NCBI RefSeq assembly: GCF_056746865.1
Contig: NZ_CM163382.1
DNA length: 64,000 bases
Direction: 5' to 3' (one strand)
Of this stretch, positions 13,988 to 57,381 are shown piece after piece. The position numbers and the translations under genes were made by a program. Each line of letters starts with the position of its first letter. The first letter of the stretch is position 1. The notes beneath the pieces are model-generated. The model was not told the DNA's origin, did not search any database, and saw only the letters and a list, made by a program, of their open reading frames with translations.

Positions 13988-14074
13988 TGGTACCCGGAGC
14001 GGGACTTGAACCCGCACAGCGCGAACGCCGAGGGATTTTAAATCCCTTGTGTCTACCGATTCCACCATCCGGGC
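13988..14074 (-). tRNA. leuZ: tRNA-Leu (anticodon UAA)
   Basis: Reverse complement matches tRNA-Leu GCCCGGATGGTGGAATCGGTAGACACAAGGGATTTAAAATCCCTCGGCGTTCGCGCTGTGCGGGTTCAAGTCCCGCTCCGGGTACCA. Confidence 0.95.
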
Positions 14075-14086
14075 TCGGGAAGAAAG

Positions 14087-14160
14087 TGGAGGCGCGTTCC
14101 GGAGTCGAACCGGACTAGACGGATTTGCAATCCGCTACATAACCGCTTTGTTAACGCGCC
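14087..14160 (-). tRNA. cysT: tRNA-Cys (anticodon GCA)
   Basis: Reverse complement matches GGCGCGTTAACAAAGCGGTTATGTAGCGGATTGCAAATCCGTCTAGTCCGGTTCGACTCCGGAACGCGCCTCCA. Confidence 0.95.
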
Positions 14161-14213
14161 AAATTCTTCAGGCCTTTCAGCCAGACATCCGCTGACGCCG
14201 ATGTCTTTTAAAC

Positions 14214-14289
<76 letters not shown>

Positions 14290-24138: not shown

Positions 24139-24238
24139 GCCGGATGCGGCGTAAACGCCTTATCTGGCCTACAAAAATGTGCAAATTCAATAAATTGCAA
24201 TTCAACTTGTAGGCCTGATAAGCGCAGCGCATCAGGCA
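24139..24238. repeat. Pair of inverted REP elements (BIME) in the fliC 3' region
   Basis: gccggatgcggcgtaaacgccttatctggcctac and gtaggcctgataagcgcagcgcatcaggca are classic REP palindromes in opposite orientation. Confidence 0.75.
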
Positions 24239-46597: not shown

Positions 46598-46684
46598 AAA
46601 TCCCGACCCTGAGGGGGTCGGGATGAAACTTGCTTAAGCAAGAAGCACTTAAAAAATTCGTTACACCAGGAAATCTGATGTGTT
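46598..46684 (-). ncRNA. dsrA: DsrA small regulatory RNA
   Basis: Reverse complement matches DsrA: AACACATCAGATTTCCTGGTGTAACGAATTTTTTAAGTGCTTCTTGCTTAAGCAAGTTTCATCCCGACCCCCTCAGGGTCGGGATTT. Confidence 0.93.
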
Positions 46685-54939: not shown

Positions 54940-55086
54940 GACTCAATCATTTTTTGAACAAATAGATAAATTTTGCGCAACGGCAGTGAATACAGGAAAA
55001 ATCGTTTTGAGCGATTTTATTTATCTTTGATATCGGCTTTATTAATTCATTTAATCAATATATTAGCACTGATTACAATTATACCT

Positions 55087-55177
55087 TTTTATTATTCTGT
55101 GTCATGATGCTTCCGTTATTAGCCTTTTATCGTCTTGTTTATATTTTTTGGGCCGGCATGATGCCGGCTTTTTTTTA
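55087..55177 (+). ncRNA. rseX: Candidate small RNA ending in an orphan terminator (position expected for RseX)
   Basis: Hairpin ggccggcatgatgccggc plus T8 at 55151-55177 with no plus-strand CDS upstream; RseX is known to lie between yedR and the yedS porin gene. 5' end not determined. Confidence 0.4.
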
Positions 55178-56229
55178 TGCCTTCATTAATGTGCGCCTGA
55201 TCACACCAGCCGTTTGGCGCAACAATCATTGATACCCCCTATGTTTCCGCTCAACTCATAACATATTGATATACATTTATAATTTTCATGAATATTTATA
55301 TTTAGAATTCATAATTCTGAATTATATTAAATAGATTAGAAACATTTTGAAATCTTTTAAATACATTTGTTACATGTAATCCTTAAAATAAAATGAACTT
55401 CATAGAATAGTATCCAAATGTGCTTTTTTTGGATAACGGCACTTATTGATATATTCATGAAGATTATAATCACAAGGGAATACATAATGAAAAGAAAAGT
55501 TCTGGCAATGCTGGTCCCGGCGTTATTAGTTGCTGGCGCAGCAAATGCGGCTGAAATTTACAATAAAGATGGCAATAAAGTTGATTTCTACGGCAAGATG
55601 GTTGGCGAACGCATCTGGTCAAATACTGATGATAATAACAGCGAAAACGAAGATACCTCCTATGCTCGTTTCGGTGTTAAAGGTGAAACCCAAATCACCA
55701 GCGAACTGACTGGTTTTGGTCAGTTTGAATACAACCTCGACGCCAGCAAGCCCGAAGGCTCTAATCAGGAAAAAACCCGTTTAACCTTCGCAGGTTTGAA
55801 ATATAACGAGTTAGGATCTTTCGACTATGGTCGTAACTACGGTGTTGCTTATGATGCCGCAGCTTATACCGATATGTTAGTTGAATGGGGTGGTGATTCC
55901 TGGGCTTCCGCTGACAACTTCATGAACGGTCGTACCAACGGTGTTGCAACCTACCGTAACTCTGATTTCTTTGGTCTGGTTGATGGTCTGAATTTTGCTG
56001 TGCAATATCAAGGTAAGAACAGCAATCGTGGCGTTACTAAACAAAACGGTGATGGCTATGCGTTGTCTGTAGACTACAACATCGAAGGTTTTGGTTTTGT
56101 AGGTGCATATAGCAAATCTGATCGTACTAATGAACAAGCTGGTGACGGCTACGGTGATAACGCTGAAGTGTGGTCATTAGCAGCCAAGTATGATGCAAAT
56201 AATATCTATGCAGCGGTAATGACTCCAAC

Positions 56230-56733
56230 TTATTGATAGTGTTTTATGTTCAGATAATGCCCGATGACTTTGTCATGCAGCTCCACCGATTTTGAGAACG
56301 ACAGCGACTTCCGTCCCAGCCGTGCCAGGTGCTGCCTCAGATTCAGGTTATGCCGCTCAATTCGCTGCGTATATCGCTTGCTGATTACGTGCAGCTTTCC
56401 CTTCAGGCGGGATTCATACAGCGGCCAGCCATCCGTCATCCATATCACCACGTCAAAGGGTGACAGCAGGCTCATAAGACGCCCCAGCGTCGCCATCGTG
56501 CGTTCACCGAATACGTGCGCAACAACCGTCTTCCGGAGCCTGTCATACGCGTAAAACAGCCAGCGCTGGCGCGATTTAGCCCCGACATAGCCCCACTGTT
56601 CGTCCATTTCCGCGCAGACGATGACGTCACTGCCCGGCTGTATGCGCGAGGTTACCGACTGCGGCCTGAGTTTTTTAAGTGACGTAAAATCGTGTTGAGG
56701 CCAACGCCCATAATGCGGGCAGTTGCCCGGCAT
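56230..56733 (-). CDS. insB: IS1 InsB reading frame (expressed as InsAB' transposase by -1 frameshift)
   Basis: 167 aa ORF ...[52 protein letters not shown]...; overlaps insA 3' end. Confidence 0.9.
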
Positions 56734-56927
56734 CCAACGCCATTCATGGCCATATCAATGATTTTCTGGTGCGTACCGGGTTGAGAAGCGGTGTAAGTGA
56801 ACTGCAGTTGCCATGTTTTACGGCAGTGAGAGCAGAGATAGCGCTGATGTCCGGCGGTGCTTTTGCCGTTACGCACCACCCCGTCAGTAGCTGAACAGGA
56901 GGGACAGCTGATAGAAACAGAAGCCAC
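56652..56927 (-). CDS. insA: IS1 protein InsA
   Basis: 91 aa [46 protein letters not shown]... Confidence 0.93.
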
Positions 56928-57381
56928 TGGAGCACCTCAAAAACACCATCATACACTAAATCAGTAAGTTGGCAGCATCACCCTATGCAGCAATGATGTA
57001 CGGTGAAACCCGCAACATGACCGTTTTGGCTAATGATCATTTTGCAAATAAAACCCAAAACTTTGAAGCTGTTGTACAGTATCAGTTCGACTTCGGTTTA
57101 CGTCCGTCTTTAGGCTACGTATATTCCAAAGGCAAAGATCTTTATGCTCGTAATGGACATAAAGGTGTTGATGCTGACCGCGTAAATTATATCGAAGTTG
57201 GTACCTGGTACTACTTCAATAAGAACATGAACGTCTACACAGCATACAAATTTAACCTGCTGGATAAAGACGATGCAGCGATTACCGATGCCGCAACTGA
57301 TGACCAGTTTGCAGTTGGTATCGTCTACCAGTTCTAATCAGCCAACGCGCCGCGGCGTGTTACTGTAAAACATAACACTAG

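Follow-up and report, generated by a model that had tools for sequence, protein, structure and literature searches.

An IS1A-type IS1 insertion with a 9-bp target duplication in the porin gene at the yedS locus of Escherichia coli

Main finding

The porin gene of the drpB-rseX-yedS-hchA locus was found to be interrupted in the window, that is, in the whole 64-kb stretch of DNA analysed. The interruption is an ordinary transposition of IS1, an element with a DDE transposase, and it carries the hallmarks of such an event including a 9-bp duplication of the target. On the reading that we favour with high confidence, an IS1A-type copy inserted by ordinary transposition at codon 243 of 357, giving an allele that is presumably null, recent, inherited and most likely near-neutral. 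The evidence from the junctions, the element, the porin family, the locus in other genomes and the rival explanations is presented below.

Insertion site and restored porin gene

The porin gene is present on the forward strand in two parts. The 5' part (55487-56214) carries codons 1-242 and 2 nt of codon 243, with the signal peptide in codons 1-21, and an AGGGA ribosome-binding site is located 7 nt 5' of its ATG. The 3' part (56992-57337) runs from the remainder of codon 243 through codon 357 to the TAA stop; it encodes approximately the final five to six beta-strands together with the C-terminal ...VYQF. An intrinsic terminator follows on the same strand (57380-57418), having a 12-bp stem with 7 GC pairs and then a T-run. 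The initial annotation had described a porin gene at 55487-57337 split by a complete IS1, and every coordinate it gave was found to hold.

The sequence CTATGCAGC flanks the element at 56206-56214 on the left and at 56983-56991 on the right. The match is perfect on both sides and the identity stops at 9 bp, the probability of an exact flanking 9-mer by chance being ~4e-6. The empty site of strain EC6563 contains one copy of CTATGCAGC, at nt 720-728 of the gene, and the flanking direct repeat noted earlier is thereby a true duplicate, double here and single there.

Joining of 55487-56214 with 56992-57337 in silico gave 1074 nt and 357 codons with one stop, the terminal one. The continuous frame with signal peptide and ...VYQF that had been expected on excision was thus confirmed, and no stop or frameshift was found elsewhere in the rejoined frame. 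The restored gene is identical to the intact EC6563 gene (WP_000824362.1) at 1074/1074 nt: the 5' part corresponds to nt 1-728 of intact genes and the stretch 56983-57337, right repeat included, to nt 720-1074, both at 100%. The exact intact 357-aa protein is present on at least 1000 public contigs. Strains EC6563 and 300490 are essentially identical to the window over the first 25 kb, yet their site is empty. Because the gene shows no substitutions against intact alleles, and because the site is empty in near-identical strains, the insertion appears young on the scale of sequence divergence, which is in accordance with the earlier suggestion of a relatively recent event.

An old pseudogene, or a rearrangement mediated by IS1 (adjacent deletion, inversion, or two IS1 copies recombining), would be another origin of such a structure. 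IS1-associated deletions do occur at the locus, as genomes H22, H23 and H164-H168 have the porin 5' part alone next to IS1 (query coverage ~75%). The window, however, has both halves, in collinear order and in the same frame, bordered by a true duplication, 100% identical to the intact gene and in the standard flanking order. This origin was given a negligible probability, and for this window it is refuted by the restored frame, the full identity with the intact gene and the junction halves.

Anatomy and coding capacity of the IS1 element

The element is a complete IS1 of the IS1A type lying on the reverse strand (56215-56982), identified from its inverted repeats, its identity with K-12 IS1A (765/768) and matches of both ORFs to the NCBIfam IS1 transposase model NF033558. 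It measures exactly 768 bp and is bounded by IRR (56215-56237) and IRL (56960-56982). Between its ends, GGTAATGACTCCAACTTATTGAT and (as reverse complement) GGTGATGCTGCCAACTTACTGAT, 18 of 23 positions agree. They are the canonical imperfect IS1 inverted repeats, so that the claim of an element with both terminal repeats is sustained. The insA gene (56652-56927, reverse strand; 91 aa, GTG start) encodes a protein without any difference from K-12 InsA1 and matches the Zn-binding domain model NF050000. The insB' frame (56230-56733, reverse strand) differs from K-12 InsB1 only by S5C and S65R. It forms part of the 232-aa InsAB' transposase, which is reconstructed through a programmed -1 frameshift at TTAAAAAAC (56670-56678, reverse strand; IS1 nt 305-313, read from the sequence), and both ORFs are intact. 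The properties of the IS1 family, namely a length of ~768 bp, inverted repeats of ~23 bp, the A6C frameshift between insA and insB', a duplication of 8-10 bp and near-identity to the reference, were all found. The Pfam families Zn_ribbon_InsA, HTH_Tnp_IS1 and DDE_Tnp_IS1 match the copy of strain F11 at the same site, which is 2 nt off that of the window. Judged from the intact ends and frames, the element looks transposition-competent. No second IS1 was found when the 64-kb window was scanned.

The IS1 copies at this insertion site differ by 1-2 nt among the window, strain EC17CM13 and F11. Positions 56497 and 56539 read C/C in the window, A/C in EC17CM13, and A/A in F11 and K-12 IS1A; the second of them alters InsB' residue 65 (R vs S). 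The pattern points to gene conversion among IS1 copies, or else to polishing or assembly noise at the repeat, and the need for one of these counts against the favoured reading.

An outward hybrid promoter at the IRL junction (TTGGCA-17-AATGAT, 56969-56997, forward strand) was considered and rejected, the promoter-like sites of the region numbering 8 against 7.1 in shuffles. The pair, with TTGGCA contributed by IRL and AATGAT by the porin 3' fragment, is weakly promoter-like and faces an ORF at 56969-57337 (122 aa, without signal peptide).

Family identity of the restored porin

The restored product matched Pfam Porin_1 (PF00267) over model positions 1-337 of 337 with E = 7e-122. In alignments with solved porins, the mature chains begin to match at residue 22 (AEIYNK), putting the cleavage site of the signal peptide after ANA. 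The C-terminus reads ...VGIVYQF, and its terminal Phe is the aromatic residue expected of a beta-signal.

A search of PDB chains gave OmpK35 as the best match (506 bits, 67% identity over the full length including the C-terminus), with an Omp35/PhoE-labelled chain also among the best relatives; E. coli OmpF scored 400 bits, and OmpC and OmpK36 ~337-349 bits (OmpC chains ~337-347). The NCBIfam cut-offs were reached neither for OmpC (NF007841, 432.3 of 484 bits) nor for OmpF (NF007446, 449.1 of 583 bits) nor for PhoE (NF007544, 423.6 of 599 bits). As all three scores lie below their cut-offs, the protein is placed as a distinct member of the general porins, nearer to OmpF/OmpK35 than to OmpC. 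The OmpC-family assignment of the initial annotation is therefore not borne out, the closest relative being of the Klebsiella OmpK35/OmpF type. From the 67% identity to OmpK35, the restored porin is predicted to form a trimeric 16-strand beta-barrel.

The yedS locus and the K-12 allele

The gene order yedJ-drpB-rseX-porin-hchA-hprS of the window is that of the K-12 yedS locus. The K-12 yedS gene (b4496, also called ompS1) has 1193 nt (~397 codons) with a TAG at codon 162 and a frameshift at about codons 212-221. The statement in the initial annotation that K-12 yedS is dead through another lesion was correct, as these defects involve no IS. The signal peptide is identical between the K-12 and window alleles and the 5' region is conserved, whereas the mature proteins have 51-59% aa identity. 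The K-12-type allele class is OmpC-like and is labelled 'ompC' by PGAP. The initial annotation had further proposed an independent inactivation of the same accessory porin; the locus is indeed the same, but 'same porin' is too strong, because the K-12 allele is very divergent (1193 vs 1074 nt, with the amino acid identity given above). The RNA of yedS (ompS1) has been reported as sigmaE-repressed in K-12 (PMC2731931).

The comparison of the locus across E. coli genomes that had been recommended was run on 5426 complete genomes. In 706 of them the match that scores best against the window allele reaches at least 99% identity; in 578 it is at 90-95%, in 859 at 80-90% and in 2696 at 60-80%. At least four divergent porin allele classes are seen at the yedS locus, with lengths of ~1059, 1074, ~1116 and ~1190 nt and nucleotide identity down to ~74%. 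A conserved 5' region and signal peptide followed by a divergent remainder is typical of diversifying surface proteins or of recombinational cassette replacement. Compared at the level of sequence, the yedS locus appears to be a polymorphic porin slot.

The rseX small RNA gene lies upstream on the forward strand (55086-55175; Rfam RF01401, 97.7 bits against a gathering threshold of 50), with its own terminator-like site at 55150-55170. It is placed between drpB and yedS in the K-12 annotation also. It encodes an Hfq-binding sRNA regulating ompA and ompC mRNAs and is situated 312 nt 5' of the porin ATG in DNA of 29% GC. Between the two genes, the window has T7 in the T-run at 55417-55423 (64-70 nt 5' of the porin ATG), against T8 in 18/18 other loci compared, which included F11, EC17CM13, EC6563, drafts with the same IS1 and K-12 with its other porin allele. 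The shorter run of the window reflects either an error in sequencing the homopolymer or a change of the 5' region that is private to it.

The other RNA genes recovered by Rfam have their usual K-12-like context: DsrA at 46598-46684 (reverse strand), an ES036/CssrF-like match at 24175-24216 (forward strand) 5' of fliC, and a Leu-Cys-Gly tRNA cluster at 13991-14289 (reverse strand).

Distribution of the junction

The same IS1 junctions were recovered as single-piece matches in the complete genomes F11 (urine, China) and EC17CM13 (chicken, China). Among the 5426 genomes, the exact junction is present in only three complete records, which represent these two strains. F11 is 99.986% identical to the 64-kb window, the differences being 7 substitutions and 2 homopolymer indels. 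In F11 and EC17CM13 the PGAP annotation shows the porin in two fragments and names the element 'IS1-like element IS1A family transposase, programmed frameshift'. The disrupted ORF runs to 56236 and encodes a 249-aa product with the IS1-encoded tail VMTPTY*, and this junction product is already public (WP_106476139.1 and others). In 39 index blocks, at least 24 contigs were seen to encode it, and most of these belong to drafts in which the contig breaks off inside IS1. The insertion is hence shared and already annotated, and it is an ordinary and known kind of event, the disruption of a gene by IS1 in textbook form. F11, EC17CM13 and dozens of draft assemblies form the small lineage that it marks, from which it follows that the insertion is inherited.

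Misplacement of a repeated IS1 inside the porin gene by the assembler was weighed against these data. IS1 is a multi-copy repeat at which draft assemblies break, and the two homopolymer-length differences between the window and F11 hint at sequencing noise. Against this, the 9-bp duplication is perfect and lies exactly at the IS1 termini, and identical junctions occur in two complete genomes that were assembled independently, as well as in numerous draft contigs running from the porin into IS1. Such an artefact is therefore regarded as extremely improbable.

Other differences from F11 were also recorded. At 32585-33719 on the reverse strand the window has a fragmented gene with ORFs of 116, 106 and 63 aa, which is labelled in F11 as 'DUF5503 domain-containing protein; frameshifted; internal stop'. 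The T-run at 33239 has one T more in the window than in F11. At 58729 in hchA there is one substitution against F11; the HchA accession of F11 is rare, and the window has the common allele, as do EC17CM13 and EC6563.

Other IS insertions at the locus

At least five independent IS1 insertions were found in the allele class of the window, at least four of them besides that of this lineage. They lie at nt 163 (strain HZ13), nt 728 (this lineage), nt 735 (ABWA45; IS1B-type, in the same orientation and 7 bp from nt 728), ~nt 852 (EH08-18-36; opposite orientation) and ~nt 902 (CFS3246 / strain 35). A single IS1 orientation near yedS was also considered and rejected: the survey had joined same-strand pieces only, and a reverse-complemented IS1 query found opposite insertions, as in EH08-18-36. 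Other alleles of the yedS locus carry IS1 in DETEC-S792 and ISEc52 (IS3) in NCTC9967.

Outside the porin gene, IS1 was located in hchA (LR-72), in the gap between porin and hchA (27992) and beyond hchA (NCTC9967). Two independent copies lie just 5' of rseX, in its promoter region, at ~43 nt in ECO12 and ~65 nt in H32. Across other strains, members of IS1, IS3 and IS5 are scattered over the whole of this small region: they occur within yedS and hchA as well as in the two intergenic spaces. AT-rich DNA is a preferred target of IS1, and the GC content is 43% for the porin gene and 29% for the upstream region as compared with 49% for the window. F11 has at least 39 IS1-containing places, and the median is ~10 per genome across the 5426 genomes. 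In K-12, an IS5 between yedS and hchA separates sublines (PMC2072959).

These data bear on the possibility that the knockout was adaptive, with porin loss selected by beta-lactams or carbapenems, or by a phage or colicin using the porin, and IS1 being the commonest mutagen at hand. The recurrent disruption of the allele class would favour such selection, as would the IS1 and ISEc52 insertions in other alleles, the stop and frameshift of K-12 and the recovery of carriers from clinical urine and poultry in China. According to citing papers, an active YedS was linked to carbapenem susceptibility in a clinical isolate by Warner et al. 2013. On the other side, ~700 complete genomes have the allele class at 99% or more, with intact single-piece genes among the matches listed, and the wide presence of the intact protein on public contigs also argues against selection for loss. 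Insertions of IS1 into hchA and into the intergenic DNA are about as frequent, as expected from the preference for AT-rich targets. With the median number of IS1-containing places per genome given above, a few hits in any AT-rich gene of 1 kb do not clearly exceed what chance would give. The adaptive explanation was accordingly rated as unlikely.

A broader proposal is that the yedS-locus porin is a recurrent loss-of-function target in natural E. coli, owing to selection (antibiotics, phage or colicin receptor) or to a local IS1 hot spot, and that the locus is a hypervariable cassette, OmpK35-like to OmpC-like, cycling between diversification and loss. It is based on the five or more IS1 insertions, two of them 7 bp apart in the same orientation, and on the IS3 insertion and point lesions elsewhere. 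We regard it as a tentative idea with a rather low probability.

Mechanism and consequence of the insertion

Under the favoured reading of a near-neutral, inherited IS1 insertion, the element would have transposed into codon 243 with duplication of its 9-bp target. The porin chain would then end past residue 242, followed by six IS1-encoded residues. By analogy with the OmpF/OmpK35 topology, the insertion point would fall at about strand 11, before loop L6, and the ~115 missing C-terminal residues would correspond to approximately the final third of the 16-strand barrel, roughly strands 11/12-16 with loops L6-L8. In the absence of the terminal Phe beta-signal recognised by BAM, no porin is predicted to be assembled in the outer membrane. 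With its product truncated in this way, the allele is presumably null. Polar effects are unlikely because the porin gene has its own terminator and hchA is separate.

The knockout would have arisen as a near-neutral side effect of active IS1 elements in a background rich in them, and its target would be an accessory porin gene that is AT-rich, dispensable and probably expressed at a low level. The many IS1-containing places of F11 are the reason for favouring a near-neutral insertion in an IS1-rich lineage. That K-12 lives with a dead yedS supports this reading. The neighbour of the porin gene, rseX, has been reported as H-NS/StpA-silenced (PMC8313858). Counting against near-neutrality are the five or more IS1 hits in one 1-kb gene together with the IS3 hit and the K-12 point lesions, which could reflect selection for loss, and the reported link of YedS to carbapenem susceptibility. 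Near-neutrality is considered the most likely outcome.

Significance

The insertion matters little past strain typing, where it provides a clean lineage marker for F11-like strains. It removes an accessory porin whose intact form is reportedly implicated in carbapenem entry. The yedS locus holds several very divergent alleles, so that 'yedS' of K-12 and of the window strain denotes different proteins. The AT-rich region from drpB to hchA has been repeatedly hit by IS elements. The allele diversity and the repeated IS hits are relevant to source-tracking with the yedS locus and to the interpretation of porin-loss resistance. These two points, recurrent IS hits and allelic diversity, are the only mildly notable ones.

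Comparison with known systems

The closest counterpart of the element is K-12 IS1A, which like the window copy has 768 bp, imperfect 23-bp inverted repeats, the A6C -1 site, a 232-aa InsAB' and an identical InsA, and also makes a 9-bp target duplication in AT-rich DNA. The two differ at three nucleotides, which lead to S5C and S65R in InsB', and in their insertion site. For the gene, K-12 yedS is likewise an inactivated accessory porin in the same slot between drpB/rseX and hchA.

For the protein, OmpK35 of Klebsiella pneumoniae (PDB 9hn1, 5o77) has the same cleavage site and C-terminal VYQF. The VEWGGD motif, common to both, presumably occupies the position of the OmpF-type constriction-loop (L3) motif. 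OmpK35 belongs to another genus and another locus, and one third of the residues differ, mainly in stretches that are variable between porins and are presumed to be surface loops.

Insertions of IS1, IS5 and IS903 are known in clinical ompK36/ompK35, ompF and ompC, where they truncate the 16-strand porin and abolish its assembly. The major porins disrupted in this way are encoded by highly expressed genes with demonstrated resistance phenotypes. In one paper, the loss of ompK35 was due to a nonsense mutation and not to an IS. The window porin differs from the major porins of the clinical cases in being accessory, while the mechanism of truncation is alike.
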